A DNA stretch of 64,000 nt from an uncultured Acidobacteriota bacterium (GCA_963807925.1 CAWEDP010000002.1:1164034-1228033), one strand, 5' to 3'; counted from the first letter of the stretch, positions 205 to 35,949 are shown. Notes: generated from the letters alone by a model not told the origin. Program-made: numbers and translations.

Positions 205-248
205 AGTATCCCAGAACCGCGCCCGGGCGAGTGTCGCAAGTTGTCGCA
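205..248 (-). promoter_or_regulatory. Site S1: TGCGACA-ACT-TGCGACA direct repeat (248->232), 21 nt, GATACT -10-like hexamer (210->205)
   Basis: Read directly from the sequence. Same architecture as S2-S5. 65 nt upstream of ATG 139. Confidence 0.6.
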
Positions 249-2487: not shown

Positions 2488-3131
2488 TAACCGCCCGATG
2501 TCGCGATCTTGTTCTGCAGCCCTCTCGGCGTGCCCGGCTTCCACGGCTCAGGAACCTTGTACTCCGAGCGATGGGGCATCTGGACCTTCGGCAGGCTCTT
2601 GGCATCCATCACGTCGTCTTCCTGGATGATGCCGTTTCGAAACAGCAGAAACGCCGTCAGCGCGTAGGCTTCGTCGGGCGTCAAGCGGCCAGGCTTGTCG
2701 TAGGGCATGGCGCGATGGATGAAGTCCCAAATCATCGTCGCGAACGGCCAGGTGACAATCGGGTAGTAGCTTTCCTCGTTGCCGCCCTTGCCGCCGATCA
2801 GGTTCGGCGCAGGGCCTTCCTTGCCGGTCGGGCCATGACAGGTGGAGCAGGCGCGCTGTGTGAAGGCCAACGCGCCCTGCGTCGCAGTGCCGCTGCCCGG
2901 CGGCAGCTCCGCACCGTCGGGGCCGATCGAGATGTCCTCCGCCGCCAGCTCCCGGGCGCTCGGCGCGCGACCGAGGCCGCTCGGCCCCTTCGCGCCGGTG
3001 GTGGGCGGTTCCGACAACCCGATGCCGCCCGAGGACCGGCCCCGCTGCTGCGCGTGCGGCGCCGAGGCCGAGATCAGACCGAAGCACACCGCGAACGCGG
3101 ACGCGTAAGCGGCACAAGCCACTGGCTTCAT
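2487..3131 (-). CDS. Mono-haem c-type cytochrome, SoxD/SorB-like partner of the adjacent molybdoenzyme
   Basis: Signal peptide MKPVACAAYASAFAVCFGLISASA. Single CXXCH (CSTCH). Distal Met context RAMPYD. Overlaps the upstream gene by 4 nt (3128-3131). Confidence 0.8.
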   Translation of the reverse strand: MKPVACAAYASAFAVCFGLISASAPHAQQRGRSSGGIGLSEPPTTGAKGPSGLGRAPSARELAAEDISIGPDGAELPPGSGTATQGALAFTQRACSTCHGPTGKEGPAPNLIGGKGGNEESYYPIVTWPFATMIWDFIHRAMPYDKPGRLTPDEAYALTAFLLFRNGIIQEDDVMDAKSLPKVQMPHRSEYKVPEPWKPGTPRGLQNKIATSGG

Positions 3132-4471
3132 CCCCGATCCCCATGCATGTCGGTAATGGTGACGGAGACTGGAGGGAGTCCGTTGGTCACCTCACCGTTT
3201 CGGTTCACCTTCCACGCCTGAATCCAGTTGCAGTGGCCGACGGTGGTATTGGACGCGCGGTACAGCTGCTGCCGGGTGAAGCCCCAGTACTTGATGAATT
3301 CCGCTTCGGAAGGCTGCACCTGATCCTTCTCGTCGATGCACCGCGACTGCAGCGTCGCGTCCTCGCCGTCCCAGTTCCACGGGTGGTAGAACTGCGTGAA
3401 CGCCCGCGGAAGCGGCCGGTCCGCCAGCCTGGCCTCCACGTAGGTCTTCCCGCCGTCGGTGGAGACCTCGACCTTGCGCACCGCCCCCCCGCCAGACCAC
3501 GCCAGGCCCCTGATCACGTACGAGCCGCGTGCAGCCAACCGGTGCGTCCCCGACGGATAGGTAATCACCGACTTGGGGCCGAACTCGTAGCTGTCGAGCT
3601 GCGTCTTCGGATCCTCGTGCAGGAATCTCGAATTCTCCTGGAACGTGAGATACGGCTGATCGACCACCTTGATGCGCCGCAGCCACTTGACCTGGTAAAT
3701 GCCTTCGAAGCCGGGAACCATCAACCGGAGCGGGAATCCCTGATCGGGACGGACCGCCTCCCCGTTCTGCGCGAACGCGACGATTACGTCGTCCAGCGCT
3801 TTCGGAAGGGGGACGCTCTTGCCGTGCTTGCCCCCCTCGGCGCCTTCGGCCACGAGCCACTTGGCGCCGTTCTTCAGCCCGGTCTCGTTGAACAGCACCG
3901 AGAGCGGCACGCCGGTCCACTCGCTGCACGCCGCGCGGCCGTGCGTATCGGCGACGGTTCGTCCCTGCGGATTCGGCCGGTTGCCGATGCATTCGATGAA
4001 GTGGATGCGCGACACGAACGGCAGGCGCTTCAGCTCGTCGACGGTGAAGCTCAGCGGACGCTCGACGAGTCCGTGAATCATCAGCCGGTGCGAGGCCGGA
4101 TCGATCGTCGGGACGCCGTAGAAATGCTGCGTCGTGTAGTGCAGCGATGACGGCGTGATGATGCCGGTCAGATCGCCGAACGGCGTCTTCGCGCCCATGC
4201 GCGACGGATTCGGCCGCGGCGGCGAGTTGTCGGGACTCATCGACCCCTCGAGCTTCCGCACGACGTTCGCGAACGGCGAGCGTCTGCCGTAGAGGACCGC
4301 ATCGATCGAGTTGATGTCGTCGACGGTCGCGTCGGTGTCGGCGGCGGCGGAAACGGCGCTCGCCGAGGGCGACCCGAGGACGGCGCTCGCGGGCGCGACC
4401 GCCAACCCCGCCAACGCAGCCCCTTTCTGCAGAAACCGCCGTCGATCCGCGCTCTTCGGCTTCGCCTTCAT
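3128..4471 (-). CDS. Tat-exported sulfite-oxidase-family molybdopterin oxidoreductase (SoxC/SorA-like sulfite dehydrogenase subunit)
   Basis: Twin-arginine signal DRRRFLQKGAALAGLAV. Mo-ligand cysteine context HFIECIGN. Sulfite-oxidase-like C-terminal dimerisation region. AAGGAG SD upstream. Confidence 0.85.
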   Translation of the reverse strand: MKAKPKSADRRRFLQKGAALAGLAVAPASAVLGSPSASAVSAAADTDATVDDINSIDAVLYGRRSPFANVVRKLEGSMSPDNSPPRPNPSRMGAKTPFGDLTGIITPSSLHYTTQHFYGVPTIDPASHRLMIHGLVERPLSFTVDELKRLPFVSRIHFIECIGNRPNPQGRTVADTHGRAACSEWTGVPLSVLFNETGLKNGAKWLVAEGAEGGKHGKSVPLPKALDDVIVAFAQNGEAVRPDQGFPLRLMVPGFEGIYQVKWLRRIKVVDQPYLTFQENSRFLHEDPKTQLDSYEFGPKSVITYPSGTHRLAARGSYVIRGLAWSGGGAVRKVEVSTDGGKTYVEARLADRPLPRAFTQFYHPWNWDGEDATLQSRCIDEKDQVQPSEAEFIKYWGFTRQQLYRASNTTVGHCNWIQAWKVNRNGEVTNGLPPVSVTITDMHGDRG

Positions 4472-4510: not shown

Positions 4511-4554
4511 ATGCTACACGGGAACGCCCCTTCGATATGTCGCAGATTGTCGCA
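4511..4554 (-). promoter_or_regulatory. Site S2: TGCGACA-ATC-TGCGACA (4554->4538), 21 nt, TAGCAT (4516->4511)
   Basis: Read directly. 39 nt upstream of ATG 4471. Confidence 0.6.
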
Positions 4555-4575: not shown

Positions 4576-5784
4576 CTACGCTTCACCAGCCATCCGATAC
4601 GCATCGAAGATCACCGACACCGCCCGCGCACAGTCGCGCGGCGTCGCCGGCGGCGGCTCGCCGCGGCTGATCCGATCCAGGCACTCCTTGATCACGCGCG
4701 GCCAGCCGGTCAGGTACCCGTCGGGCGCCTTGATCGTCTCGTTCCGATCGCCGCCGATAATCTGCACGCCCTCCCCGCCTCCGGTCGTTGCCCTGAGAAA
4801 TGCCTTCTCGGCCGAGATCTTCCGCTCCACGTCGTTCCCGCGCGCCCCCGGGAACGTGTAGCTGGCTTCGGCGAGACACACGATGCCGCTCGGCGTCCGC
4901 ATCGTGACGTGGGCGTAGTCCTCGACCTCCCGTTTGTGGAGCCGATGGCTGGTGATGGCCGAGACGACCTCGGGCTCTTCGCCGGTGATGTGCCGGAAGA
5001 TGTCGATGCCGTGGATCCCCAGGTTCAACAGGGCGCCCCCACCGGCTTCCTTCTTCGACAGCATCCAGGGACTGCCGTTGTCGATGTACCGCTGGACGCC
5101 GGGCTGATTGAAGCGCATGAGCCCGTGCGCGATTGTCCCGAGCTCGCCTCGTTGTATCATCGAGACCGCCGTCTCGACGATCCAGCTGTAGCGGAACGGC
5201 ATCGGCGCCGCCGCCCAGGCGTTGCTGGCCTCGGCCAGCGTCGCCAGCTCGTTCACCGTCTTGTCGTCGATGCCCCACGGCTTCTCCATCAGGAACGGAA
5301 TGCCGGTGTCGACCAGGTAGCGGAATGCGGCCGGCATCGCCGCGTGGTGGCCGAGCGCGACGACGAACTCCGGCTTCGTCTCTTCAATCATCTCGCGGTA
5401 GTCGGTATAGGCCGCGCTGCCCGCTCGATCGGCGAAGGCGCCGGCCATCGCCGCATCCGGCGCGTGCGCACCCACGATCTCCACGTGTTCCCGCTGCAGC
5501 GCCGGCAGGTAGATTTGCGGCGCGTGATAGTGGTCCACGCCGATGACCGCGACGCGCTGAGGACGCTTGCGGACCGCCTGGGCGGACGCCTCGGTCCGCT
5601 CCGCGCGGTCCAGAATCGACGAGACGGTCACCCCCGCGACGGCGCACTTCGCGATCCGATCGAGAAAGCTGCGACGGCCGATCGCGCCGCGTCGATACCG
5701 GCGGGCGAGATCGAGGAGCTCCGGCGGATGCCCCGACGCGTGGTGCGGCTTGATCATGACGCCTCGCGTTGCCCCGCGCGTCAC
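4576..5784 (-). CDS. Tat-exported Gfo/Idh/MocA-family oxidoreductase, paralog 1
   Basis: RRSFLDRIAKCAVAGVTV twin-arginine signal. EKPWGID motif and GELG block of the family. About 70-75% identical by eye to 15866-17014. The start could be ATG 5757 (MIKPHH). Confidence 0.8.
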   Translation of the reverse strand: MTRGATRGVMIKPHHASGHPPELLDLARRYRRGAIGRRSFLDRIAKCAVAGVTVSSILDRAERTEASAQAVRKRPQRVAVIGVDHYHAPQIYLPALQREHVEIVGAHAPDAAMAGAFADRAGSAAYTDYREMIEETKPEFVVALGHHAAMPAAFRYLVDTGIPFLMEKPWGIDDKTVNELATLAEASNAWAAAPMPFRYSWIVETAVSMIQRGELGTIAHGLMRFNQPGVQRYIDNGSPWMLSKKEAGGGALLNLGIHGIDIFRHITGEEPEVVSAITSHRLHKREVEDYAHVTMRTPSGIVCLAEASYTFPGARGNDVERKISAEKAFLRATTGGGEGVQIIGGDRNETIKAPDGYLTGWPRVIKECLDRISRGEPPPATPRDCARAVSVIFDAYRMAGEA

Positions 5785-5833
5785 CGCCGCCCGAGGGTGC
5801 GATGGCGCGCGGCTGAGAAGGAGTGCGCGCGAC

Positions 5834-8812
5834 TCAGAAGTCCACCTGCACCCCGAGCTTGATCCATCGCGCCGTCAGAATGCTCGTCGGCCGCTGCCAC
5901 GCAGGACCGAAGGTGTTGTTGGTGGTGAGCACGTCGCTTCTGTTCAGCACGTTGAAGATGTCGGCAGTGCCGAGGATGCGACCGCGGCCGATCGTGAACG
6001 CCTTTCTGAGGCTGACGTCGAGCTCCTGCGCCCGGGCTCCGTACAACGTGGCCGGGGGGATGATCTGCAGCGTCGCCGTCCCGTTGGCGCCCGACGACAG
6101 GTTGCGATGGAGCGACGGCGCAATCTGGGCGTTGGTCGCGGTATAGCTTGCCGTGATCTGCGGTCCCGGCAGGCTCTGGAATCCGACGCCGACCTGGATC
6201 CCGAAGGGCACCGGGTAGCTGGCCAGGAACTTGATCTGCGGCTGCCACGGCGGGCGCACGTCGCACGATTCGGTGATGTTGGGTTGACCTGCCAGGCCGC
6301 TCAGGTTCGGCTGGTCGAGGACGTAGCAGTTGTTGGTGCGCAGCCGCCCCTGATCCACACCACCCTGGAGCACGCCCGACCTCGGCAACCGGATGCTCGT
6401 GGTCAGACCGTAGCCGTCCCAGACCGACTCCTGCTTCCCGAAGTTCGACGCCTGGGTGATCAGGGTGATGTTCCGGCCGAACTTGTCCGGGTTGACGTCG
6501 TAGAAGCCGCAGATCTGGTTGCCGCCGCCGCCCGGCAGCCGCGAATCGACAGGCGCGGTGATGCAGTACGACGTGTAATCGGAGGGACTGGTCGCGGTGT
6601 TCTCGGTCTGGCTGAAATTCCCGAAGGATCGCCGATAGTAGCTCGCCGTGACCGATGCGCCCTGCCACAGCTCCTTCTGCAGGCCTGCCGTGACCTCCCA
6701 GTTGTATCCGCGCTTCCCGAACCCCCGGGTGACGTCGTCAGCGTAGGTGGTCGCCAGCGGATTGGCCTTCCCGAAGTTCAGGTTCGACAGCGGCCCGCAC
6801 TCCTGGTTCGACGCCGAATTGTTGAAATCGCAGTCCACTACGTAGTTGCCGGTTCGCGGATCGCCGGGACCGAAGAAGCTGTCGTTCCACGTGCGCGTGG
6901 CGCTCGTCACCGATCGTGTGATCGGGTTGTTCGCCGTCGCGATGCTGACCGTCTGGCCGGCCACGTACCGGCCCACCGAGAACTTCACCGCCGTCTTGCC
7001 GTCGCCGAACAGGTCGTAGACCGCTCCGACCCGCGGATTCAAGTCCTTCCAGTTCGGGACATCGTCCACCGCTGGGTAGGTGGTGACCGGCACGAAGATG
7101 GGGTTGGACAGGCGGAACTGCGCCAGCAGGGCGCCTTCGTCCTGAACCGGCACCGACCCGTTGAAGTAGTCGAACCGCAGCCCGTAGTTCAGCGTGAGGC
7201 GCTTGAGCGTCCAGCGATCCTGCGCGTACAGCCCCAGATCGGCGTTCATGTTCGTGACGACGACCGACGGGGTCGCCTGCAGCGTGACCTGGTTCGGAAT
7301 GCCGTTGTTGAACCGGTAGGCCCGTGAGCCGGCCGTCTCGTTGGTCGCGATGTTGTGACCGAAGACGTCGCTGACGCCGAATTTGGCGGCGTGCGACCCG
7401 GTCACATACGTCAGCGCGAATCTCACGCTCAGCGGATTCGTCGGGTTCTGGCCGTACGTCGAGTTGGCCCGATAGGAGAAGTTCGTCGATTGTTCCGTGA
7501 CTGCGATCGTGTCCACCGCGACGCCCGGCTGCCGGTTGTACTGGAACGATCCCCAGCTCGACCCCACGCCGGCTTCCATGAGCACCCGGTTCGTCGCCGT
7601 GTACCGCCAGGTCGCCTGACCGAAATAGTTCGGCCAGAAGATGCCGATCTGCGTCGCCTCGGGCGACACCGTGGCGCTGAACCCGCGGTTGCACGTGCAG
7701 TGCGGCGCCGCGTCGAAGAAGAGGCTCACTCTGTGGTTCTTCGACGCCTGCCACGTCGTGCGCAGATTCGTGCTGACGTCCCAGACCGTGGTGCCCGCCT
7801 GATGCGCGGTGTCCGGCGTGTAGGTCCACGCGGTCGGGGTGGCGTTGAAATACAGGCCCGCCAGGTAGTCGGTTTCCGTGTTGTAGCGATACGCGTTGTA
7901 GAACCACAGCTTGTCCTTGACGATCGGCCCGCCCCACGCCGGATTGACGTCGTAGAGCTCCTTGAGCGAGTTGACCGCCGTGAGCCCGCCGGCCTTGAGA
8001 CCGTCGGTGAGGTTGTCGGCCTGCAGCTTGTGGCCGCCGCCGCCGGCGAAGAAGAACCCGCTGAAGCGATTGCCGCCGGTCTTCGGCACGATGTTGTTCC
8101 GGACGCCGCTCAGCTGCAGTTCAGCCGATTCGCCGCTGATCGACACGCTCGATTCCTGCACCGAGGCCATGTTGACGTAGTAGATGAAGCCGGCGCCGTC
8201 GGCCGCCATGCTGTTGGTCTCGAAGCCGTCGATCGCCAGTCTGGTCGAGCTGATCGCGCTGCCGTGGATCGTGAACGTGCCGCCGAACACCCCGACCTGT
8301 CCCAGGTTGCCGGTCACGCCGGGGATGAGTGGCGTGTAGTTGTTCGGATTGCGTTGCGTGGACGGCAGCCCTTCCAGCACCTGCTGCGACAGGACCTTCT
8401 GATCCTTGTTGGTCTGAACGTCCACGACCGGCGACACGCCCGAGACGGTCACCGACTCCTCAACGGCCCCGACGTGCAGCTCGGCGTTCACCGTCGCCGT
8501 GAACCCGGGCGGCAGGTCCAGCGCTTCGCGCTTGAACGTCGTGAACCCGGTCAGGGAAAACGTCACCGAGTAGATGCCGGGGCGGAGGTCGACGATCTTG
8601 TATTGCCCCTCGCCGTCGGTGACCACGGCTCTGACCTTCTCGATCAGCGCCGGACTCGAAGCTTCGACCGTGACACCCGGAACCACGGCACCCGACGCAT
8701 CCCTGACGACGCCCGCGATTCCGCTCGTTGCGGCCTGGGACCACGCCACGTCCGGCACCATCACCGATATGACGCCGGCGAAGACTGACGCAGCCAACAG
8801 CATCGAACGCAT
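5834..8812 (-). CDS. Carboxypeptidase-regulatory-like domain + TonB-dependent-receptor-like beta-barrel outer-membrane protein
   Basis: Signal peptide. GIAGVVRDASGAVVPGVTVEA...GQYKIVDLRPGIYSVTFSLTGF N-domain. Long Gly/Asn/Tyr-rich barrel. C-terminal ...GVQVDF aromatic terminus. GAGGAGGAAG SD. Confidence 0.85.
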   Translation of the reverse strand: MRSMLLAASVFAGVISVMVPDVAWSQAATSGIAGVVRDASGAVVPGVTVEASSPALIEKVRAVVTDGEGQYKIVDLRPGIYSVTFSLTGFTTFKREALDLPPGFTATVNAELHVGAVEESVTVSGVSPVVDVQTNKDQKVLSQQVLEGLPSTQRNPNNYTPLIPGVTGNLGQVGVFGGTFTIHGSAISSTRLAIDGFETNSMAADGAGFIYYVNMASVQESSVSISGESAELQLSGVRNNIVPKTGGNRFSGFFFAGGGGHKLQADNLTDGLKAGGLTAVNSLKELYDVNPAWGGPIVKDKLWFYNAYRYNTETDYLAGLYFNATPTAWTYTPDTAHQAGTTVWDVSTNLRTTWQASKNHRVSLFFDAAPHCTCNRGFSATVSPEATQIGIFWPNYFGQATWRYTATNRVLMEAGVGSSWGSFQYNRQPGVAVDTIAVTEQSTNFSYRANSTYGQNPTNPLSVRFALTYVTGSHAAKFGVSDVFGHNIATNETAGSRAYRFNNGIPNQVTLQATPSVVVTNMNADLGLYAQDRWTLKRLTLNYGLRFDYFNGSVPVQDEGALLAQFRLSNPIFVPVTTYPAVDDVPNWKDLNPRVGAVYDLFGDGKTAVKFSVGRYVAGQTVSIATANNPITRSVTSATRTWNDSFFGPGDPRTGNYVVDCDFNNSASNQECGPLSNLNFGKANPLATTYADDVTRGFGKRGYNWEVTAGLQKELWQGASVTASYYRRSFGNFSQTENTATSPSDYTSYCITAPVDSRLPGGGGNQICGFYDVNPDKFGRNITLITQASNFGKQESVWDGYGLTTSIRLPRSGVLQGGVDQGRLRTNNCYVLDQPNLSGLAGQPNITESCDVRPPWQPQIKFLASYPVPFGIQVGVGFQSLPGPQITASYTATNAQIAPSLHRNLSSGANGTATLQIIPPATLYGARAQELDVSLRKAFTIGRGRILGTADIFNVLNRSDVLTTNNTFGPAWQRPTSILTARWIKLGVQVDF

Positions 8813-8857: not shown

Positions 8858-8902
8858 AGTATAGGAGTGAGATCCGTGGCGGAATTGTCGCAACTTGTCG
8901 CA
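8858..8902 (-). promoter_or_regulatory. Site S3: TGCGACA-AGT-TGCGACA (8902->8886), 22 nt, TATACT (8863->8858)
   Basis: Read directly. 45 nt upstream of ATG 8812. Confidence 0.6.
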
Positions 8903-8953: not shown

Positions 8954-9724
8954 TCAGCCGAGGAAGCGGGCGATGACGGCCGCGACGGCGTGCGGCTGCT
9001 CGATGAAGAGCATGTGCGGCGCGCCGGCGACGACCTCGAATCGGGCACCGGGAACCGCCGTCGCAATGGCCTCGACCACCGCGGGCGGCGACGAGCGATC
9101 GAGCTCTGCGGCCAGACACAGCGTCGGCACACCGATCGACGGCAGCCGCGGCGCCGTGTCGAGCGCCGCCATCGCGCGCCACGCGGCAGACCACCCGCGC
9201 ACCTGCGCGCTCGCCAACTGCCGCCGGACCTGATCGGCGCCGCCGCGCGCCAGGAACGCGTCCGTGAACCAGCGCGCGAGCGTGGCGTCGAGCGCAGCCG
9301 CCATGCCCGCGCGCTCGCCGAGCGACCCACGCTCGATGAGCGCGGCACGCAGCCCGGGGGTGAGCGTGCTCGGACACGCACTGACGACGAGGGCGTCCAC
9401 GTCGGACGGGTGGTCGAGCGCCACCAGCTGCGCGATCATGCCGCCGAAGGAAAACCCGATCACGGCGACAGGCGCGTAGTCGAGGTGCCTCAGGAGGGCG
9501 TGGACGTCTTCCGCGTAGCTCTCGAGAGTGACCGCGTCCCCGGTCATCGGCGAGCGGCCGTGTCCGCGCAGGTCCACACGAAGCACCTGATACTGCGGCG
9601 TCAGCTCGCCGGCCATGGCATCGAAGCAGGTGAGGTCGAGGCCAACGGGGTGCAACAGGAGAAGGCGGCGGCCGGAGCCCTCGAGCCGGTAATGGAGCAG
9701 CGGAGCGGCCCGACGGCCGATCAC
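8954..9724 (-). CDS. Alpha/beta-fold hydrolase (3-oxoadipate enol-lactonase-like)
   Basis: LLLLHPVGLD...RVDLRGHGRS and nucleophile elbow GFSFGG. 4-nt overlap with the upstream gene. Confidence 0.8.
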   Translation of the reverse strand: MIGRRAAPLLHYRLEGSGRRLLLLHPVGLDLTCFDAMAGELTPQYQVLRVDLRGHGRSPMTGDAVTLESYAEDVHALLRHLDYAPVAVIGFSFGGMIAQLVALDHPSDVDALVVSACPSTLTPGLRAALIERGSLGERAGMAAALDATLARWFTDAFLARGGADQVRRQLASAQVRGWSAAWRAMAALDTAPRLPSIGVPTLCLAAELDRSSPPAVVEAIATAVPGARFEVVAGAPHMLFIEQPHAVAAVIARFLG

Positions 9725-10716
9725 GGGATCAGCACGGAGCTGCCCGTCGTCCTCCGCTCCTGGAGATCGCGATGAGCGCGCGCGGCGTCAGCGAGCGCGT
9801 AGCGCTGCTGAATCGCCACTCGCACGGCGCCGCTCTTCACGACGTCGAACAGCTCGCCGGCGCGCTGCAGCAGCTCGGATCGGTCGGCCGTGTAGTCGGC
9901 GAACCCGGCGCCGGTGACGTAGAGGGATCCCATGCGGTTGAGGCGAAAGATGTCCAGCGGCGGCACCGGTCCCGACGAGGACCCGAACGAGACCGCCGTG
10001 CCGCGCCTGGCGAGGCACGCCAGGGAGAAATCGAACGTGCTCGCGCCGACCGAGTCGAACACGACGGGAACGCCCTTGCCCCCGGTCAGCTCGCGTACGC
10101 GGGCGACGACGTCCTCGGTCGTGGAGACGATCGGATGCTGACAGCCGTGATCGCGGGCGAGCGCCGCTTTCGCCAGCGAGCTCGTCGTTCCGATCACCGT
10201 CGCCCCGAGGTGGCGCGCCCATTGACACATCAGCAGCCCGACACCGCCGGCGACCGCATGGATCAGAATCGTCTGCCCGCGCTGAACCGGATACGCGCCA
10301 CGGATGAGATATTGCGCCGTGAGTCCCTTCAGGAAGACGGCCGCGGCGGTTTCGTCGTCCATCCACTCAGGCAGCCTGACCAGCCGCGCCGGGTCCATGA
10401 TCCGCAGGTCGCAGTACGCGCCCGGCGACAGACCGGGAGACGCGCCGCCGTACGCCACGCGATCGCCGACCGTCAGCTCGCGCACGTTGGCGCCGGCGCT
10501 TTCGACGACCCCGGCCGCCTCCATGCCGAGCGTGAGCGGGAAGCCGGGACCGGGATAGCGTCCGGTCCGGTGGTGGATGTCGGTGAAATTGAGGCCGATG
10601 GCCGTGTGGCGGAGGCGCACCTGGTCGGGGCTGGGCGGCCCGACCTCGATCGTGTCGAGCTGCAGCGCTTCGGGACCGCCGTTGCGGTAGATGCGAACCG
10701 CTCGGGACGTCGCCAC
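9721..10716 (-). CDS. NADPH:quinone oxidoreductase / zinc-type alcohol dehydrogenase superfamily
   Basis: MATSRAVRIYRNGGPEALQLDTIEV...GLNFTDIHHRTGRYP and AVAGGVGLL dinucleotide loop. Confidence 0.85.
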   Translation of the reverse strand: MATSRAVRIYRNGGPEALQLDTIEVGPPSPDQVRLRHTAIGLNFTDIHHRTGRYPGPGFPLTLGMEAAGVVESAGANVRELTVGDRVAYGGASPGLSPGAYCDLRIMDPARLVRLPEWMDDETAAAVFLKGLTAQYLIRGAYPVQRGQTILIHAVAGGVGLLMCQWARHLGATVIGTTSSLAKAALARDHGCQHPIVSTTEDVVARVRELTGGKGVPVVFDSVGASTFDFSLACLARRGTAVSFGSSSGPVPPLDIFRLNRMGSLYVTGAGFADYTADRSELLQRAGELFDVVKSGAVRVAIQQRYALADAARAHRDLQERRTTGSSVLIP

Positions 10717-10725
10717 GCGCGCCCC

Positions 10726-12048
10726 TCAGTCGACCGATCCGGCCATCGCGCGGGGCCGCGACACGGCCGACCCTTCGAGGCGCGGCCGGCCGTCCAGGGA
10801 CTCACCCTGCGGCATGGCCGGATCGAGGCGCGTGGTCAGGACCAACCCGACCGCGGAGGCGGCGGCGCAGATGGCGAACGCCGTCTGATAGCTGTGCGTC
10901 ACGTCGAACACGTAGCCGGCCACGATCGGGCCGAGCGCGCAGCCCAGCGTCCACCCGTTGAACGACACCCCGAAGATCAGCCCGTGCTGCCGCATGCCGA
11001 ACAGCCAGGCGACGAGCGGCGAGTGCGCGGTCGCCAGCCCGCCATAGGCCAGTCCGAACGCCCCCGCGAACAGGTACAGCGCCCAGGCCTCCTTCGCGGG
11101 CAACAACCACAACAGCGACGCCGCCATGAGCACGAAGCTGATGACGTACACGCGCTTGTTGCCGATGCGGTCGGCCAGGCCGCCCAGCAGGATCTTGCCG
11201 ACGACGCTGGCACCGCCGATGCTGGCGAGGATGGCCGCGGCGCTCGCGGTGGAAATTCCCAGGTCGGTCGCGTGCGGCGCCAGGTGCAGCATGATCGCCT
11301 GGAGTCCGAAGCCGTAGCAGAAGAACGTGACGAAGATCAGCCGGAACTGGCGCGACGCGATGGCTTCGCGGAGCGACAGCCCGCTCGCCACCGTCCTCAC
11401 CGCGTGGTGCTTGCGTCCCGCGCTGGCGTACGGCGTGCCGCCAACCTGTGCGGGGTCTCGTTTGAGCAGTTGTGCCGCGAGGACGACGCCGAACAGCACG
11501 ACGGTGCCCAGAATCGTGTAGGAGCGGCGCCAGTCGTACACGCCGATCAGCCAGTTCGAGATCGGCGGTCCCAGGAGCGCGCCGACGCCGACGCCGGCCG
11601 TGACAATCCCGGTCATGATGCCCCGGCGCGCCACGAACCATTTCGCCGTGGTCGAGGTGAGCGGGACGAAGGTGCCGCCCAGTCCGGCGCCCACGATGAC
11701 GCCGTAGAACAGGTAGAGCTCCCACACGGCGCTGATCCGCGACATCAGCATGAAGCCGACGCCGATCAGCGTCCCGCACACGGTCAGGACCATGCGCGGA
11801 CCGAAGCGGTCGTTCAATCCCCCCATGAGGATGGACACGACGCCCTGCGTCACCCAGACAAGAGAGAAGGCGCCGGCGGTGGTCGCCCTGGTCCAGCCGA
11901 AGTCGGTCAGCACCGGCTTGAAGAACACGCCAAAGGCGTAGTGCACCGCGAAGATCAGCACCATGATGAACGAGGCCGCTGCCACGATCGTGTAGCCGTA
12001 GAACGGCGTCTGAGCGCTGCTCGTGGAATCGATCCCGCTGCTCGACAT
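10726..12048 (-). CDS. MFS transporter (oxalate/formate-antiporter-like subfamily)
   Basis: 12 predicted hydrophobic segments. GGLNDRFGPR and GGLADRIGNKR loop motifs. Start taken at ATG 12048 (MSSSGIDS...) with a GAGG SD, not the ORF start at 12144. Confidence 0.8.
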   Translation of the reverse strand: MSSSGIDSTSSAQTPFYGYTIVAAASFIMVLIFAVHYAFGVFFKPVLTDFGWTRATTAGAFSLVWVTQGVVSILMGGLNDRFGPRMVLTVCGTLIGVGFMLMSRISAVWELYLFYGVIVGAGLGGTFVPLTSTTAKWFVARRGIMTGIVTAGVGVGALLGPPISNWLIGVYDWRRSYTILGTVVLFGVVLAAQLLKRDPAQVGGTPYASAGRKHHAVRTVASGLSLREAIASRQFRLIFVTFFCYGFGLQAIMLHLAPHATDLGISTASAAAILASIGGASVVGKILLGGLADRIGNKRVYVISFVLMAASLLWLLPAKEAWALYLFAGAFGLAYGGLATAHSPLVAWLFGMRQHGLIFGVSFNGWTLGCALGPIVAGYVFDVTHSYQTAFAICAAASAVGLVLTTRLDPAMPQGESLDGRPRLEGSAVSRPRAMAGSVD

Positions 12049-12090: not shown

Positions 12091-12134
12091 AGTGTGACAT
12101 TTCAGGTGACGGCCGGTTGTCGCAGTTTGTCGCA
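12091..12134 (-). promoter_or_regulatory. Site S4: TGCGACA-AAC-TGCGACA (12134->12118), 21 nt, CACACT (12096->12091)
   Basis: Read directly. 42 nt upstream of ATG 12048. An extra inverted half-site GCGACA lies at 12138-12143. Confidence 0.55.
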
Positions 12135-12178: not shown

Positions 12179-12886
12179 TCATCTCGGGCGCGCGGGCAGC
12201 AGGGGCGGCGTTCCGCCCGGCGTCAGCAGGTAACCGTCGCCGTACACCGTGTGGATGAACCGCGGGTGGCGGGCGTCCGCCTCGATCTTCTTTCGAAGAC
12301 GCGCGATCGCATGGTCCACCGACCGGGTCGCCGGCACGTCGGGGTATCCCCACACTTCGCGCAGCAGTTCGTTGCGCGACACGAACCGATTCTCCCGCTC
12401 GGCGAGAAACTGGAGCAGCACGTACTCCCGGTGCGTGAGGTGGAGCGTCCGCGATCCCCTCACCGCGTGCTGCGCGCCGAAATCGATGGTGACACGGCCG
12501 AGCACCAGCCGTTCCACCATCGGACGCGAACGGCGGAGCACGGCGCGCACGCGCGCAAGGAATTCTTCCAGGTCGAACGGCTTGGTGATGTAGTCGTCGG
12601 CGCCGAGATCGAGCCCCCGGAGCTTGTCCGCCTTCTGGCCGCGCGCCGTCAGCATCACGATCGGCGTCCGCCCGCCCTGCCGCAGGAGGCCGCACAACTC
12701 GAAGCCGTCCACGTCGGGCAGCATGATGTCGAGGACGACCAGATCCGGGCCCGAGCGCTTCACCTCGCTGAGGGCCGACGCGCCGTCGGCGACCGTCGTG
12801 ACGTCGAACCCCTCGAACTGGAGGTTGTCGCGCAGCACTTTCGCGAGCGCCGGGTCGTCTTCGATGATGAGAATCCGCTTCGTCAT
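12179..12886 (-). CDS. OmpR/PhoB-family response regulator (receiver + winged-helix)
   Basis: KRILIIEDD...DLVVLDIMLPDVDG receiver. C-terminal LTHREYVLLQFL...IHTVYGDGYLL winged helix. An alternative GTG at 12952 would add a His-rich tail, MQGHHHDHDRDRPGHSGSGARE. Confidence 0.9.
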   Translation of the reverse strand: MTKRILIIEDDPALAKVLRDNLQFEGFDVTTVADGASALSEVKRSGPDLVVLDIMLPDVDGFELCGLLRQGGRTPIVMLTARGQKADKLRGLDLGADDYITKPFDLEEFLARVRAVLRRSRPMVERLVLGRVTIDFGAQHAVRGSRTLHLTHREYVLLQFLAERENRFVSRNELLREVWGYPDVPATRSVDHAIARLRKKIEADARHPRFIHTVYGDGYLLTPGGTPPLLPARPR

Positions 12887-12957
12887 CTCTCGTGCACCGC
12901 TCCCGGAGTGACCCGGGCGGTCTCGGTCGTGGTCGTGATGGTGGCCCTGCACGGCGC

Positions 12958-14628
12958 TCAGGCGCGCTCGTCGCTGGGCAGCGTCACGCTCACCGTGGTG
13001 CCCGCGCCGGCCCGGCTGGAAATCTTCAGGCGCCCGCGATGATCCTCGACGATGCGCTTCACGATCGCGAGGCCGAGGCCGCTCCCATTGGCGCCGACGT
13101 CGCGCCCGCGGAAGAACTTGCGCGTCACCTGATCGACTTCGTCCTGCGGGATGCCCCGGCCGCGGTCGGCGACCCTCAACACGACCCCGCCGTCGCCCCG
13201 GCAGGCGCTGATGTGGAGCGACCGTTCGCCTGGCGAATACCGGATGGCATTGTCCACCAGGTTGTCCAGCATCAGCCCGACCGCGATGCGATCGCCCAGG
13301 ACCGGCGGGAGGTCGGCCGGAATGTCGACGCGCGTTTCAAAGCCGGCCGCCTTCATCTGAGACTGGAAGCCCGCGAGGGTCCGCTCGACGACCCCCTCGA
13401 GCGCCAGCGGCTCGAACCAGTACACCTCCGCCACATCGGTGATCCGCGACAGCGCCAGCAGGTTGTCGATGAGGCGCGTCAGCCGTTTGGCCTCCTGCAC
13501 GACGAGCTCCGCGTACTCGCGCTGCCCTTCCTTCGAGGCGATCCGTCCCGACACGAGCGTGTCGCCCAGCGCACGAATGGTGGCAATCGGCGTCTTGAGC
13601 TCGTGCGTCACCGTCGACACGAATTCCGAGCGGAGCTCCACCAGGCGATCGCGCGCCCCGATCGCGCGCGCGGTCATCATCACGCCCAGCGCCAGCGAGC
13701 AGACGGCGACCGCGGCAATGACCAGCGTTCGATCGGCGCCGCGGACTGCTGCGGCAAGCGCCGGATCGTCGGCACCCCCGACCTGCACCGTCCATTGCTG
13801 CCGCCCCAGGTCCTTGGGTTGCGCGACGGCCAGCAGGAGCGGATCGAAGAACGTCACCGGGAACGGCCGCGTCGCCTGCCCTTCCCACGCGCCCGGCTGT
13901 GTCGACGCCACGCGAACGCCCGTCTCGTCGACGACGGCCAGCGCGAGTCCGCTGGTCGTCCCGCCGGTGCGAGCGACCTGGCTGGTCAGCTCCTGAAAAT
14001 AGTGCTGGCGGGCCCACGCCATGTTGACCATGAAGCCGAACATCCCGTCGGGATGATCGCGGAACGCGCCGAGGTAGCGGAGGTGGACGACGATCTGGTA
14101 TTCGGCTTCGTCGGTGGAGAGTCCGAAGACGGCGAATCGCCGGCCGCCCGTCGCGTCGCGTTCGACGCGCTCGACGATCGCGGAGGCGAGGCGGGGCTCC
14201 TTGAGGACGGTGACCGGGAATTGATTCGACACCGGCGCCGACCGGGACCACGGCGGCGGGCGATCCGACCGCGTGAAGAACAGCAGCGAGTCGTCGCCGA
14301 GGGTCCCCCGCGTCGCGAAGAACGCCTCCGGGTAGGGATAGCGCGCGAACGCGCTGGCAACGACGCTGGTGAGATCGTAAGGCGCTTCCTGCGGCGAGCG
14401 ATCCCACTCCGACGAGGGGAGCACCGAGCGCTGGACGGCCTGCATGTCGCGCGTCAGCGCCATCACGAGCAGGTCGGCCGTCTGCGTGGCCCGCTGCTCG
14501 GCGAGCAGCGCCGAGCTGCGCTGCCACTGACGCGTGGCGCCGTAGCCGTACCACGTCAGCAGACAGGCCGACGCGCACAGGCCGGCCGCGAGCCACGTGA
14601 CGCCGCGCCCCCTGGTCAGCTTCGGCAC
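12958..14628 (-). CDS. Sensor histidine kinase with ~290-aa periplasmic domain (HisKA + HATPase_c)
   Basis: Two TM segments flank a large extracytoplasmic region. H-box FVSTVTHELKTPIATI. N/G boxes DNLVDNAIRY and GSGLGLAIV. GTG start lies 1 nt after the TAXI gene stop. Confidence 0.9.
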   Translation of the reverse strand: MPKLTRGRGVTWLAAGLCASACLLTWYGYGATRQWQRSSALLAEQRATQTADLLVMALTRDMQAVQRSVLPSSEWDRSPQEAPYDLTSVVASAFARYPYPEAFFATRGTLGDDSLLFFTRSDRPPPWSRSAPVSNQFPVTVLKEPRLASAIVERVERDATGGRRFAVFGLSTDEAEYQIVVHLRYLGAFRDHPDGMFGFMVNMAWARQHYFQELTSQVARTGGTTSGLALAVVDETGVRVASTQPGAWEGQATRPFPVTFFDPLLLAVAQPKDLGRQQWTVQVGGADDPALAAAVRGADRTLVIAAVAVCSLALGVMMTARAIGARDRLVELRSEFVSTVTHELKTPIATIRALGDTLVSGRIASKEGQREYAELVVQEAKRLTRLIDNLLALSRITDVAEVYWFEPLALEGVVERTLAGFQSQMKAAGFETRVDIPADLPPVLGDRIAVGLMLDNLVDNAIRYSPGERSLHISACRGDGGVVLRVADRGRGIPQDEVDQVTRKFFRGRDVGANGSGLGLAIVKRIVEDHRGRLKISSRAGAGTTVSVTLPSDERA

Positions 14629-14629
14629 G

Positions 14630-15613
14630 TCACCGTCTCAGCTCCCGCTCGCGATAATATCGCGCCGCGCCCTCGTGCAGCGGAATCGGCGCGGCCGGCG
14701 CCTGCTCGACATCCATCAGCCGCAGCGACCGCTGGGAGACCGCCAGGGTCTGAAGCGCGTCGAAGAAGAGCCTGGTCAGGTCGTACACCAGCGCCTCGTC
14801 GAGATCGCGCCGGCACACCAGGACGCTGTCGACGCCGACCGTGCGAATCGAGTCGTGCACGCCCGGGTACGAGCCCGCGGGGATGGTGGTGGCCCTGAAG
14901 AAGGGATAGGTGCGGCGGAGGCGCTCGATCGGCGGCCCGACCAGCGGGATCAATCGGCCGCCCGCGCGCGTCACGGTGCGAATCGCTTCCGCCGGGTAGA
15001 TCGCGTCGTCGAACATCGCATCGAGCGTGCCGTCGACCATGTGGCGCGCGGCGACGTCGAACGGCAGCCGCTCGGCGCGGATGTCGGATTTCGAGATCCC
15101 GAGCGCGCGCAACACGAGCTCGGCGGTCAGCGCCGTGCCGCTGCCCTCGGGGCCGATGCCGACCGAGTGTCCCCGAATCTCGCGCGCCTCGGTGATGTTG
15201 GTCCCCTGGCGCACCGCCAGGTGAACCGCCGGGAGCTGCAGGACCGCCATCGCGCGCACCCAATCGTAGGGCGGGCCGGCGGGGGTCAGGCCGCCGACAA
15301 ACGCCGTGTAGGTCACGTCGGCGAACACAAACCCGAGGTCCGCGTCGCCGCGCTGGATCGCCTCGACGTTGGCGACCGCCCCGGGGCTGGGCTCGATCGT
15401 GACCGTCACCTCGGGGAGCGCGCGCTGGTAGAACTCGGCGAGACCTTCGGCGAGCGGCCGCAGCCCTCCGCCGGGCGTGCCGGTGATGACGCGGATGACC
15501 GTCCTGGGCGGCGGCGGCGGCGCCTCGCGCCGGCCACACGAGGACGCAACGGCGGCGCCCGCCGCCACCATCAGGAGCAGGGGGGCGCCACGGCGGCGAG
15601 GACGCGGGGGCAT
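14630..15613 (-). CDS. TAXI-family (TRAP-associated) periplasmic solute-binding lipoprotein
   Basis: MPPRPRRRGAPLLLMVAAGAAVASSCG lipobox. TGTPGGGLRPLAEGLAEF...GAVANVEAIQRGDADLGFV...GIGPEGSGTALTAELVLRALGI is typical of TAXI receptors. No TRAP membrane subunit in the window. Confidence 0.75.
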   Translation of the reverse strand: MPPRPRRRGAPLLLMVAAGAAVASSCGRREAPPPPPRTVIRVITGTPGGGLRPLAEGLAEFYQRALPEVTVTIEPSPGAVANVEAIQRGDADLGFVFADVTYTAFVGGLTPAGPPYDWVRAMAVLQLPAVHLAVRQGTNITEAREIRGHSVGIGPEGSGTALTAELVLRALGISKSDIRAERLPFDVAARHMVDGTLDAMFDDAIYPAEAIRTVTRAGGRLIPLVGPPIERLRRTYPFFRATTIPAGSYPGVHDSIRTVGVDSVLVCRRDLDEALVYDLTRLFFDALQTLAVSQRSLRLMDVEQAPAAPIPLHEGAARYYRERELRR

Positions 15614-15683: not shown

Positions 15684-15727
15684 TGAGACAAGTTGCGACA
15701 TTTCGCGGCGCGGCTCCGCCCTATACT
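15684..15727 (+). promoter_or_regulatory. Site S5: TGAGACA-AGT-TGCGACA (15684-15700), 21 nt, TATACT (15722-15727)
   Basis: Read directly. Points toward the + strand gene at 15866 (138-nt leader). Lies 37 nt upstream of a reverse-strand TATAGT (15646->15641) in front of the TAXI/HK/RR operon. Confidence 0.55.
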
Positions 15728-15865: not shown

Positions 15866-17014
15866 ATGGACCGAAGAGACGGAGAAATCAGCCGGCGCAC
15901 GTTTTTCGATCGCGCGGGGAAGCTCGCGGTCGGCGGCCTGGCGGTGACGGTGCTCGACGGCGTTGCCGTCCCCAACGCGGCCGCGGCCGGGCAGCAGCCC
16001 TCGACGACGGGCGCCCGTCGCCGCCCGCAGCGGGTCGCGCTCATCGGCGCCGATCACTACCACGCGACGTCCACGCCGAACTACCTGCGCATTCTGCAGA
16101 ATCAGAAGCTCGAGATCGCGGGGGTGCACGCGCCGGAGCCGCAGATCGCGGCGAAGTGGGCGCAGCAGTACGGGAGCACGCCGTACACCGATTACCGCGC
16201 GATGATCGACAAGACCAGGCCGGAGTTCGTCGTGGCGCTCGGCCATCATGCGGCGATGCCCGCGGAGTTCCGCTACCTCGTCGACACCGGCATTCCGTTC
16301 CTGATGGAAAAGCCGTGGGGGATCGACGCGAAGACGGTCAACGAGCTGGCCGACCTGGCGGAATCGCGGAAGGCCTGGGCGGCGGTGCCGATGCCCTTCC
16401 GCTACGGCTGGTTTGCGGAAACGGCTGTCGCCATGCGCGACAAGGGCGAGCTCGGCGCAATCTCGCACGGCCTCATGCGCTTCAATCAACCCGGCATTCA
16501 ACGGTACATCGACCTCGGCAGCGCCTGGATGCTGTCGAAGAAGGAAGCCGGCGGCGGCGCGCTCATCAATCTGGGAATCCACGGCTTCGATCTCTGCCGG
16601 TACATCACCGGCGAAGAACCGAACGTGGTGTCGGCGGTGACGAGCCACAACGTGCACAAGCAGGAGATCGAGGACTACGCCTTCGTCACGCTGCGCACGC
16701 CGAGCGGCGTCATCTTCCTCAATGAGGCCAGCTACACGTTTCCGGGCGCCGGCTCCGATCAGGAGCGGAAGATCTCGGCGCAGAAGGCCTTCCTGAGGGC
16801 GACGACGACGGGCGGCGAGGGAGTCCAGATCATCGGGCCCGGGAGGAACGAAGTGAGCAAGGCGCCCGAGGGATATCTGAGCGGCTGGCCGCGAGTCGTC
16901 AACGAATGCCTCGATCGGATCGGTCGCGGCGAGCCGCCGCCGGCCACCGCGCGCGACTGCGCCCGCGCCGTCCAGTTGACGTTCGACGCCTATCGCATCG
17001 CTGGGGAAGCGTAA
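15866..17014 (+). CDS. Tat-exported Gfo/Idh/MocA-family oxidoreductase, paralog 2
   Basis: Only the last 382 codons of track ORF 14597..17014 are used. MDRRDGEISRRTFFDRAGKLAVGGLAV Tat signal. EKPWGID. GGAGAG SD. Paralog of 4576-5784. Confidence 0.8.
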   Translation: MDRRDGEISRRTFFDRAGKLAVGGLAVTVLDGVAVPNAAAAGQQPSTTGARRRPQRVALIGADHYHATSTPNYLRILQNQKLEIAGVHAPEPQIAAKWAQQYGSTPYTDYRAMIDKTRPEFVVALGHHAAMPAEFRYLVDTGIPFLMEKPWGIDAKTVNELADLAESRKAWAAVPMPFRYGWFAETAVAMRDKGELGAISHGLMRFNQPGIQRYIDLGSAWMLSKKEAGGGALINLGIHGFDLCRYITGEEPNVVSAVTSHNVHKQEIEDYAFVTLRTPSGVIFLNEASYTFPGAGSDQERKISAQKAFLRATTTGGEGVQIIGPGRNEVSKAPEGYLSGWPRVVNECLDRIGRGEPPPATARDCARAVQLTFDAYRIAGEA

Positions 17015-29902: not shown

Positions 29903-30180
29903 GTTGGCTTTTAGACACCGCTGACTGTCGTTCGGCCGGACCTGGATCCCACAACGGTCACGCACAAGCACGACACCGCAACTGCGCACAACAAGTCAGA
30001 ACCCGAGTTGTTCGTGGAGTTTGCCGATCGCGTTCCCGAATGGTGCGTCGTCATTGGCCTCATCGGCACCGGACAAGAGATCCACGTCGGCTGGCTGATC
30101 GGTCAGCTTGAAGAACGTGCTCAAGAGGTGCTTATCCAGGACCTTGACGCGCCGCTTCGACCCATTTCTGGCAACGTCCC

Positions 30181-30226
30181 AAAAAACGAAAGGCCGGGAA
30201 TCCCGAAGGAAGACCGGCCCATTTTT
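30181..30226 (-). terminator. Rho-independent terminator next to the displaced tRNA 3' fragment (bidirectional hairpin)
   Basis: GGCCGG (30192-30197) and CCGGCC (30214-30219) form a stem with an inner 3-bp stem and a TTCG loop. A6 run at 30181-30186 gives a U-run on the minus strand; T5 at 30222-30226. Confidence 0.6.
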
Positions 30227-30234
30227 GCGATTTC

Positions 30235-30286
<52 letters not shown>

Positions 30287-30470
30287 TGAGCCTCACCGAT
30301 TTGCAAACGATTTCGCATCTCTCCGGACTCGGGTCGCAACCGGGTAGCGGCTCGGAAGTGCCAGCGGCCCACCTTAGCCGGCCATCGCCGACATGGTGAA
30401 CGCGAGACCCGAAGACGCAACACGCGGGCCAGCTTGTTACCCCACGCTGCGCGGTGCTACTGTGATCGCT

Positions 30471-30695
30471 ATGACATTGAAGGCTCGAGTGAAGGCCGGC
30501 CGGCTGGTCGTTGACGAACCCACAGACCTGCCCGAAGGAACGGAAATCGAGCTGCTGGCTCTCGATCCCGGAGATTGGCTCGACGAGGACGATCGTGCCG
30601 CCTTGCATCGGGCTCTGAAAGAATCCGACGAAGACATCAAGGCGGGCCGTCTCATTGACGCGGACGTGATCCTTCGCGAACTTCGATCGCGTTGA
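30471..30695 (+). CDS. Antitoxin of a ParE/RelE-type TA pair
   Basis: Start at ATG 30471 (MTLKARVKAGRLVVDEPTDLPEGTEIELL...). The N-terminus looks like an AF2212/DUF104-type antitoxin. The C-terminus (DRAALHRALKESDEDIKAGRLIDADVILRELRSR) is ParD/addiction-module-like. Its stop overlaps the toxin start (TTGA). Confidence 0.6.
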   Translation: MTLKARVKAGRLVVDEPTDLPEGTEIELLALDPGDWLDEDDRAALHRALKESDEDIKAGRLIDADVILRELRSR

Positions 30696-30991
30696 AGAAC
30701 CGCCGCGTCCGCTTCACAGCCACTGCGCAGGAACACGTTCGGCGGGAGGAGGCCTGGTGGCTGGCCAATCGCGACCACCCCGACGTGTTCGCCGAGGAAC
30801 TCCAACAAGCGCTCCAGATCATCACGGCGCTTCCGGGTGCCGGAACTCTCTACAATCAGTCGTCCTCTCCCGGCGTCCGCCGCGTCTACCTCAGGAGACT
30901 CGCCGCCCATCTCTATTACACGTTCGACGACACCAGGGTGATCGTTCGCGCTCTCTGGGGCTCGCGTCGCGAACGCGGCCCGCGGATTTGA
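30692..30991 (+). CDS. RelE/ParE-family toxin
   Basis: TTG start overlaps the antitoxin stop. ...VRRVYLRRLAAHLYYTFDDTRVIVRALWGSRR is a typical ParE C-terminus. Confidence 0.7.
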   Translation: MKNRRVRFTATAQEHVRREEAWWLANRDHPDVFAEELQQALQIITALPGAGTLYNQSSSPGVRRVYLRRLAAHLYYTFDDTRVIVRALWGSRRERGPRI

Positions 30992-31108
30992 CGTTCAACG
31001 GTGTGATGACTGCGACCATGGCGGTCCGAGCATGGCCCCGCGACGGGTTCAAGCCTGACGTTCATTGTGTGGGCGGTCACCCTCAAGTAACCTTGTTCGC
31101 ATTCCCTG

Positions 31109-34294: not shown

Positions 34295-34403
34295 CGATCT
34301 CCGCCACGTCCGCGGCGACAGCCAAGCCCGCAATCTTCGGTGGCTTACGACGCTCGGGTAGCAACGAAATCGGACAAGAGCCGGGGCACATTCGTCAGAA
34401 CTC

Positions 34404-35115: not shown

Positions 35116-35129
35116 GGCACCGGCCCGCT

Positions 35130-35674: not shown

Positions 35675-35685
35675 TCCCTCTGTTG

Positions 35686-35714
35686 AGTATATGCACAGTT
35701 GTGCATACAGTCAA
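35686..35714 (-). promoter_or_regulatory. brnTA promoter with operator-like inverted repeat in the spacer
   Basis: Minus strand: TTGACT (35714->35709), 17-nt spacer, TATACT (35691->35686), then 11 nt to ATG 35674. The 8-2-8 inverted repeat TATGCACA-GT-TGTGCATA (35690-35707) fills the spacer. Confidence 0.6.
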
Positions 35715-35935: not shown

Positions 35936-35949
35936 CGTCGCTTTGAAAA

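Follow-up and report, generated by a model that had tools for sequence, protein, structure and literature searches.

The stretch of DNA analysed here (the window) covers 64,000 nt from an uncultured, soil-type and Vicinamibacterales-like bacterium of the Acidobacteriota (GCA_963807925.1 CAWEDP010000002.1:1164034-1228033). It carries a cassette of three minus-strand genes, which encode in this order a TAXI-family solute-binding lipoprotein, a sensor histidine kinase, and an OmpR/PhoB-family response regulator (Table 1). Between the TAXI stop and the GTG that opens the kinase (14628) lies a single base (14629), and the junction reads TGAcGTG. The coordinates of the three genes and this 1-nt gap, as given in a preliminary description of the window, were all re-derived and agree. 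TAXI proteins are the least understood binding proteins of TRAP (tripartite ATP-independent periplasmic) transporters and have been treated so far as transport subunits. The partners described for them in the searchable literature are TRAP transporters and, since 2025, GltS, the first partner outside TRAP (PMC5812351, PMC11574862, PMC12344293). No description of a TAXI-kinase pair was found there. The preliminary description proposed that the TAXI protein encoded here acts for the kinase as a ligand-sensing co-receptor, and not as a transport subunit.

Relatives of the cassette were collected by a pattern scan with one genome per species. This gave 376 stretches, and the best 80 of the 376 were used as loci, nearly all of them from Vicinamibacterales or unclassified Acidobacteriota metagenome-assembled genomes. 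The kinase was scored as the same when phmmer recognised it from only the sensor half as query (E 1e-35 to 1e-107). A kinase with the same sensor is found directly 3' of the TAXI gene and on the same strand in 69 of the 80 loci, and the regulator is also visible in 64 of those. Five further loci have the same kinase nearby in another arrangement, which brings the total TAXI-kinase linkage to 74/80 (92%), and the linkage persists down to 35% TAXI identity. The TAXI stop and the in-frame kinase start overlap as RTGA at 56 of the 69 junctions, and the TGAcGTG of the window is a close variant. The six loci without the kinase are L023 (contig end), L041, L009, L032, L012, and L035. Among them L041 is a canonical TAXI-DUF1850-DctM operon and the only one of the 80 loci with a DctM permease; the other 79 have no six-frame phmmer match to the L041 permease within ~7 kb. 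The neighbourhood survey proposed in the preliminary description, of kinase and regulator versus TRAP permease, thus comes out on the side of the kinase. Because 74 of 80 related loci have the same kinase beside the TAXI gene, the adjacency is not due to chance.

Starting from the kinase gives the same picture. Its sensor domain belongs to a family of limited size, with 451 representatives matched at E<=1e-3 out of 1.84 billion, and five of six distant kinases sampled (32-44% sensor identity) have an NMT1_3 gene directly upstream. Such conserved genetic coupling is that of a binding-protein-dependent sensor kinase, and there is good support for the TAXI-kinase cassette as a genetic module that relatives have conserved. 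At least seven genomes supply two cassettes each. The inner-membrane transporter beside the cassette changes between loci (SDF/DctA, MFS, DASS, or CitMHS, and in some loci none), whereas TAXI and kinase stay linked. The MFS gene downstream of the cassette in the window was considered as a conserved partner and rejected, as no homologue of it turned up in the 80 loci. In a mirror-tree comparison TAXI, the kinase sensor, the kinase core, and the regulator co-diverge about equally (r 0.74-0.81; partial correlations 0.12-0.37), which at the level of sequence shows inheritance as a cassette. Three apparent natural TAXI-kinase fusions in public protein sets (P0283, P0291, and P0351), considered as Rosetta-stone evidence, proved to be gene-calling or frameshift artefacts; reading through the overlapping stop/start junction, they take their N-terminal part from the upstream TAXI gene translated out of frame or with a frameshift.

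No TRAP permease (DctM/DctQ) is found among the multi-transmembrane open reading frames of the window, each of which is assigned to another family: major facilitator superfamily (MFS, three), ClC, VIT1, SDF, TerC, and an FG-GAP protein. A six-frame phmmer search of the window with the Vicinamibacterales DctQM permease of L041 gave no match at E<=0.01. The DctQ/DctM membrane component that is encoded with the binding protein in a TAXI-TRAP system is therefore absent from the 64-kb window, as the preliminary description had pointed out.

In three more distant cassettes (L034, 7591-8325; L036, 7946-8383; L044, 7756-8403) the TAXI and kinase genes are separated by a gene for a DUF1850 protein that carries a signal peptide. 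A DUF1850 gene is also located in L050 (7831-8502). In the canonical operon L041 it sits between TAXI and DctM (3178-3633). Because DUF1850 occupies the TAXI-kinase gap in cassettes and the TAXI-DctM gap in L041, the gene order hints that the cassettes were derived from TAXI-TRAP operons in which the permease was replaced. DUF1850 may be a relic of the TRAP operon or an accessory protein of TAXI; no mention of it was met in the literature searched.

The first protein of the cassette belongs to the TAXI family by both TIGR02122 (226 bits, cutoff 84.35) and PF16868 (190.8 bits, cutoff 27, E 5e-56). The protein carries an N-terminal lipoprotein signal, MPPRPRRRGAPLLLMVAAGAAVASS-C26, and the lipobox Cys26 is unchanged across 44 homologues. 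The AlphaFold2 (AF2) model (pLDDT 90.6) has the two-lobed venus-flytrap fold, and its seven best PDB matches are solved TAXI proteins only (1us4, 8u79, 9ibo, 9ibp_A/B, 8s4j, and 4ddd; TM 0.79-0.89). For the pocket, the ligand residues of VcGluP (PMC11574862) were transferred by hand through a HMMER alignment to 8s4j. VcGluP Y45, Y46, S75, Q93, E125, Y200, and M201 correspond to L51, R52, A79, F97, P128, D202, and D203 of the window protein, respectively. The residues of glutamate-binding TAXI proteins of the VcGluP/TtGluBP type (Y45, Q93, S75, and E125) are thus not present. It is reported that mutation of Y45 or Q93 lowers the affinity of VcGluP 200- to 1000-fold (PMC11574862). Since both are replaced here, glutamate is an unlikely ligand judging from the alignment. 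Among the cassettes the predicted pocket positions are hypervariable and grouped in sub-clade signatures (e.g., FYAFQTTD.I, FHSFQTTVSG, and the VcGluP-like FYSQWNTVVG), while framework residues are constant. The ligand of the window protein is probably a small organic acid or carboxylate, because of the known ligands of the TAXI family and the carboxylate carriers (SDF, DASS, CitMHS, and monocarboxylate-type MFS) in the regulons.

Hydrophobic helices of the kinase (TM1, ~11-30; TM2, ~300-320) enclose a periplasmic domain at ~31-298. The periplasmic domain of the preliminary description is therefore present, at ~268 residues and not the ~290 given there. The kinase has HisKA (333-397, PF00512) with His342 in THELKTP and HATPase_c (445-553, PF02518), and neither a HAMP domain nor a Pfam sensor-domain match is found in it. 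Together with the regulator, which has a receiver and a winged-helix Trans_reg_C domain, it constitutes a two-component system. Residues 31-300 have zero Pfam matches in the window protein or in 120 homologues, including the dCache and sCache sequence models. In the AF2 model (62 sequences; pLDDT 83, pTM 0.75) a long helix is followed by an alpha/beta module (~83-202), a connecting helix, and a smaller second module (~228-285) before TM2. Foldseek gives a probability of 1.0 to the double-PDC/dCache domains of McpU, PctD, KinD, CqsR, TlpQ, TlpA/C, and LuxQ (E 4e-7 to 8e-4). The TM scores are modest (0.3-0.57) because the query included the transmembrane helices. A long N-terminal helix and two PAS-like modules between transmembrane helices are the architecture of dCache sensors, and the kinase sensor is accordingly predicted to be a double-PDC (dCache-like) domain, a relation by fold alone. 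Twelve sensor residues are 100% invariant among 53 cassettes: D61, F94, Y99, R120, R123, W127, P138, Q178, V201, W205, Y210, and F260. An invariant kinase module beside a variable TAXI pocket would be expected if TAXI provides the specificity and the kinase reads TAXI.

For the regulator, comparison with its orthologues makes ATG 12886 the most likely start. A GTG is present at 12952, 5 nt past the kinase stop, and had been put forward as an alternative start that would add a His-rich tail. The codon exists, but the tail has no counterpart in the 71 orthologues compared and was dropped. Space for at most five extra residues is left in 40 of the 71 orthologous open reading frames, and all start at the conserved M-x-K-R-I-L-V-V-E-D-D, which corresponds to ATG 12886.

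A direct repeat, TGTCGCAAnTTGTCGC, is common to the regions upstream of TAXI genes, with its TGTCGC half-sites 10 bp apart. The window has five copies of this box at <=1 mismatch, all intergenic, vs 0.02 expected. When the box is read as GCGACAAnTTGCGACA, a -10-like hexamer lies 20-22 nt downstream of each copy in the window (TATACT, TATACT, TAGCAT, GATACT, and (T)CACACT). In the window and the loci together, TAnnnT is found 20-24 nt after the box in 32 of 43 cases (mode 21-22), vs 1.1% in the background. This spacing places the putative box centre near -41.5 and would set the direction of transcription. A position near -41.5 is the classic one for class II activators. The ~10-bp-period direct repeat by the -35 region and the fixed -10 spacing have the geometry of OmpR/PhoB class II promoters, and GCGACAAnTTGCGACA is the probable binding box of the cassette's regulator.

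Boxes flank the cassettes in many loci. They sit past the regulator gene or between the TAXI gene and its divergent neighbour, and they always point to the flanking gene. The first gene behind the box was sampled for 28 boxes: it is TonB-receptor-like in 11, SDF/DctA in three, gamma-glutamyltranspeptidase, pyrroloquinoline quinone (PQQ) dehydrogenase, or amidohydrolase in two each, and penicillin amidase or TAXI in one each. Enrichment of TonB receptors by plain presence (48/80 loci) is weak, as the window itself has such a gene about every 32 kb, and was set aside, so that only box-preceded genes are counted. Two box variants occur in distant sub-clades, ~100-250 nt upstream of TAXI genes: TTGTCATCAATTGTCATC in L058, L067, L070, L073, and L075, and TGTGACAAGTTGTCACA in L059, L063, and L069. 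One of the two is palindromic. The variants suggest that the box has diverged along with the regulator, so that paralogous cassettes would be insulated from each other.

The five boxes of the window mark a contiguous candidate regulon of ~16 kb (Table 1). The SoxC-like enzyme and cytochrome c behind box 2, alongside sugar-type periplasmic oxidoreductases, make an oxidised or sulfur-containing organic compound a possible substrate of the regulon. Box 5 (S5) lies between the TAXI gene and the divergent oxidoreductase gene, and the preliminary description considered autoregulation of the TAXI operon from it. S5 and a TATAGT (15646-15641) do exist in that direction, 38 nt apart and with the box inverted; the box-to--10 geometry fits the divergent oxidoreductase gene only. 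In the loci no properly oriented box is found before TAXI operons, palindromic variants excepted, and autoregulation was rejected as the primary reading. Because only the divergent direction matches the other four boxes of the window (box, 21 nt, TATACT), S5 is best read as a putative activator site of the oxidoreductase gene.

Table 1. Cassette genes, boxes, and candidate target genes in the window (positions counted from its first letter)
Feature	Position	Strand	Remarks
TAXI-family solute-binding lipoprotein, 327 aa	14630..15613	-	ATG 15613, TGA 14632-14630; signal peptide, lipobox VASS-C26
Sensor histidine kinase, 556 aa	12958..14628	-	GTG 14628, TGA 12960-12958; HisKA, HATPase_c
OmpR/PhoB-family response regulator, 235 aa	12179..12886	-	ATG 12886; PF00072 and PF00486
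Box 5 (S5)	15685..15700	+	reads GAGACAAGTTGCGACA on +; 21 nt before TATACT 15722-15727
Tat-signal GFO/IDH/MocA oxidoreductase	15866..17014	+	box 5, probable target; Pfam, NCBIfam, promoter geometry
Box 4, GCGACAAACTGCGACA	12118..12133	-	between regulator stop and MFS gene, 70 nt before ATG 12048
Box 4 unit	8954..12048	-	MFS, NADPH:quinone reductase-like, PcaD-like hydrolase
MFS transporter, oxalate/formate-monocarboxylate type	12048-10726	-	box 4 unit
NADPH:quinone reductase-like protein	10716-9721	-	box 4 unit
PcaD-like alpha/beta hydrolase	9724-8954	-	box 4 unit
Box 3, GCGACAAGTTGCGACA	8886..8901	-	22 nt before TATACT 8863-8858
Box 3 unit	4576..8812	-	receptor-like and oxidoreductase genes
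TonB-dependent-receptor-like outer-membrane protein	8812-5834	-	box 3 unit
Second Tat-signal GFO/IDH/MocA oxidoreductase	5784-4576	-	box 3 unit
Box 2, GCGACAATCTGCGACA	4538..4553	-	21 nt before TAGCAT 4516-4511
Box 2 unit	298..4471	-	SoxC-like enzyme, cytochrome c, G8/beta-helix protein
SoxC-like molybdoenzyme	4471-3128	-	box 2 unit; TIGR04555 419 bits, just below cutoff 420
Cytochrome c	3131-2487	-	box 2 unit
G8/beta-helix protein	2544-298	-	box 2 unit
Box 1, GCGACAACTTGCGACA	232..247	-	21 nt before GATACT 210-205
Second receptor-like gene	ATG 139	-	box 1 target; leaves window

An SDF/DctA-type carrier is also encoded in the window (42052-43353), 27 kb from the cassette and with no box nearby; its homologue in the closest relatives is box-controlled and adjacent to the cassette. 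Two of the kinase-less loci (L009, 91-2524; L032, 6788-10343) have TAXI paralogues followed directly by a regulator box and an SDF/DctA gene, and the order in L032 is TAXI-DctA-TAXI. These paralogues could belong to binding-protein-assisted DctA carriers, or could be extra co-sensors under control in trans. Elsewhere in the window, a stretch of lower GC content (30000-36030; 0.60-0.63 vs ~0.69) adjoins a minus-strand tRNA gene (35954-36027). Its products are a 1061-aa PLD-nuclease/ResIII-helicase/DUF3427 protein (31109-34294), a protein with a SEC-C motif, and a BrnA antitoxin; the stretch probably represents a small island of defence or toxin-antitoxin genes.

Signalling from a binding protein to a kinase is established for LuxP-LuxQ and TorT-TorS (PMC8050422). 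The comparison with LuxP-LuxQ made in the preliminary description is apt. There a periplasmic binding protein is the receptor for a kinase with two tandem PAS/PDC-like periplasmic modules, and LuxQ periplasmic structures (3c30, 3c38, 1zhh_B, and 2hj9_D) are among the structural neighbours of the window kinase sensor, which is likewise predicted to be double-PDC. The two systems differ in that LuxP is an ABC-type (ribose-binding-protein-like) protein and not TAXI, and in that LuxQ is a hybrid kinase feeding a phosphorelay whereas the window has a plain HisKA kinase and an OmpR-type regulator. The window sensor, furthermore, retains an invariant Arg/Trp/Tyr set and may still form a pocket.

Binding proteins of secondary transporters also take part in signalling. 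In the C4-dicarboxylate sensor DctB-DctS-DctR(-DctA) of Bacillus subtilis, the kinase DctS works with a co-sensor, DctB, which is a TRAP DctP-type binding protein (Graf et al. 2014, as cited in PMC12718363 and PMC6978683). The likeness to the window is a TRAP-family binding protein that would act as kinase co-sensor without a TRAP permease, and an SDF/DctA gene follows the cassette in the closest relatives of the window locus. DctB itself is of the DctP family, which has no sequence relationship with TAXI. Its kinase DctS is of the CitA/DcuS type and has one PAS domain as sensor. In the window, unlike the DctB system, the co-regulated carrier is an MFS protein and outer-membrane receptors dominate the regulon. 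Bordetella BctC, a binding protein from the TTT (tripartite tricarboxylate transporter) family, is engaged in two-component signalling with BctE (Antoine et al. 2005, as cited in PMC5812351); BctC still serves the BctBA permease, whereas the window cassette has no linked permease. In TAXI-GltS (Bordetella pertussis BP0403; PMC12344293) a TAXI lipoprotein without a TRAP permease is translationally coupled to an unexpected partner, as in the window. That partner is a glutamate carrier and its TAXI protein is an elongated glutamate-binding dimer, while the window partner is a kinase and the window TAXI protein is normal-sized and lacks the key glutamate residues (VcGluP Y45 and Q93, here L51 and F97). 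With the canonical TAXI-TRAP systems (VcGluPQM and TtGluBP; PMC11574862) the window shares the binding-protein family and fold, and differs from them in the missing DctQM membrane component and in the pocket residues.

The reading we favour, with a probability of about 0.6, is that the ligand-loaded TAXI protein is a co-sensor of the kinase, so that TAXI would have been recruited from TRAP transport into a three-gene sensing cassette. The membrane-tethered TAXI protein would capture a small periplasmic ligand, probably an organic acid other than glutamate. In its closed, ligand-loaded form it would dock on the double-PDC domain of the kinase and alter autophosphorylation. The phosphorylated regulator would then bind the direct repeat GCGACAAnTTGCGACA near -41.5 and activate the flanking promoters; we infer activation rather than repression. 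In the window these promoters would drive two TonB-dependent-receptor-like genes, the MFS gene, two Tat-exported oxidoreductases, the hydrolase, the quinone reductase, and a SoxCD-like pair. The cassette would then probably be a nutrient detector for a neighbouring set of uptake and oxidation genes. The partnership suggested in the preliminary description is strongly favoured by the conserved linkage (order in 69/80 loci, RTGA in 56/69, TRAP in 1/80, and 5/6 distant kinases), and the invariant Arg/Arg/Trp/Tyr set in the distal module of the sensor, which that description did not mention, leaves room for direct ligand binding by the kinase.

Several observations weigh against a co-sensing TAXI protein. 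The box is assigned to this particular regulator by co-location alone, and the mirror-tree signal does not pick out the sensor domain or a TAXI-sensor contact. One distant kinase, P0358, bears the same sensor without an adjacent TAXI gene. Some TAXI paralogues adjoin DctA without a kinase (L009 and L032), and TAXI proteins can serve non-TRAP carriers (TAXI-GltS, PMC12344293). The visible window is 64 kb of a 3.3 Mb contig, and a permease could sit elsewhere on the contig. The distal PDC module of the kinase holds the invariant Y99, R120, R123, W127, and Q178. These residues lie roughly at what we take to be the carboxylate-binding place of dCache sensors. The kinase could thus bind the ligand itself through them, and an invariant kinase module with a variable TAXI pocket is also compatible with kinase binding of a moiety shared by all ligands.

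If the kinase does bind the ligand in its distal dCache-like pocket, TAXI would be merely co-expressed, for scavenging, buffering, or transport, with no part in signalling. The invariance of the distal residues and P0358 speak for this, as does the fact that most structural neighbours of the sensor (McpU, PctD, KinD, TlpQ, and CqsR) are direct small-molecule sensors. A bystander, however, would hardly account for overlapping stop and start codons or for 92% linkage at identities as low as 35%, an invariant kinase pocket is mismatched with diversified regulons and TAXI pockets, and no cognate permease is close by for TAXI to serve; direct sensing is therefore quite unlikely. Unlikely as well is a dual role, in which TAXI feeds a non-TRAP carrier controlled by the cassette (DctA, MFS, or DASS) and also reports its occupancy to the kinase, like B. 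subtilis DctB-DctS-DctA. In closest relatives (L002, L004, L005, L009, L019, L025, and L032) SDF/DctA with a box stands directly after the regulator or TAXI gene, and in the window the MFS gene stands behind box 4. The order of binding protein, kinase, regulator, and DctA in these relatives is what we take to be the dctB-dctS-dctR-dctA order of B. subtilis. Against a dual role, the neighbouring carriers are of unrelated families and many loci have none, the kinase is the sole invariant partner of TAXI, and we know of no MFS carrier that uses a binding protein. Precedents for a dual role are the tripartite sensor of B. subtilis, as cited in PMC12718363 and PMC6978683, and TAXI-GltS, where TAXI works with a non-TRAP carrier (PMC12344293). 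An ordinary TRAP system, with a fused DctQM encoded elsewhere in the genome and the two-component system only as its regulator, would agree with the small visible part of the contig (64 kb of 3.3 Mb), with the existence of orphan TRAP binding-protein genes (PMC12344293), and with the canonical TAXI-DUF1850-DctM operons that Vicinamibacterales own (L041). It is very improbable, given that 79 of the 80 loci have no permease within ~7 kb, that several genomes hold two or more cassettes, and that TAXI genes are usually in an operon with the permease (PMC5812351, PMC12344293).

A broader interpretation falls a little short of an even chance. The cassettes of TAXI, dCache kinase, and OmpR-type regulator may be an expanded and undescribed class of binding-protein-dependent two-component sensors in Vicinamibacteria. 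Differently tuned TAXI pockets would be their specificity modules, and a shared box and promoter design would directly activate local regulons for nutrient acquisition (a TonB-dependent transporter of the outer membrane, enzymes of the periplasm, and a carboxylate carrier of the inner membrane). In function they would be to Acidobacteriota what sensor-regulated polysaccharide utilisation loci are to Bacteroidota, having arisen from TAXI-DUF1850-DctQM by a swap of permease for kinase.

A conserved TAXI-kinase module would give the TAXI family a role in signalling. If co-sensing is true, TAXI is the fifth family of binding proteins that serve as kinase co-sensors, after the ABC-type class I, TorT-like, DctP-type, and TTT families. 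The compact, modular cassettes are also candidates for biosensor engineering. In Vicinamibacteria, which are abundant and poorly studied soil Acidobacteriota, the module provides a handle on gene regulation, with sensor, regulator, box, and target promoters readable from sequence. TAXI ligands could help predict the substrates to which TonB-dependent uptake loci of these bacteria respond.

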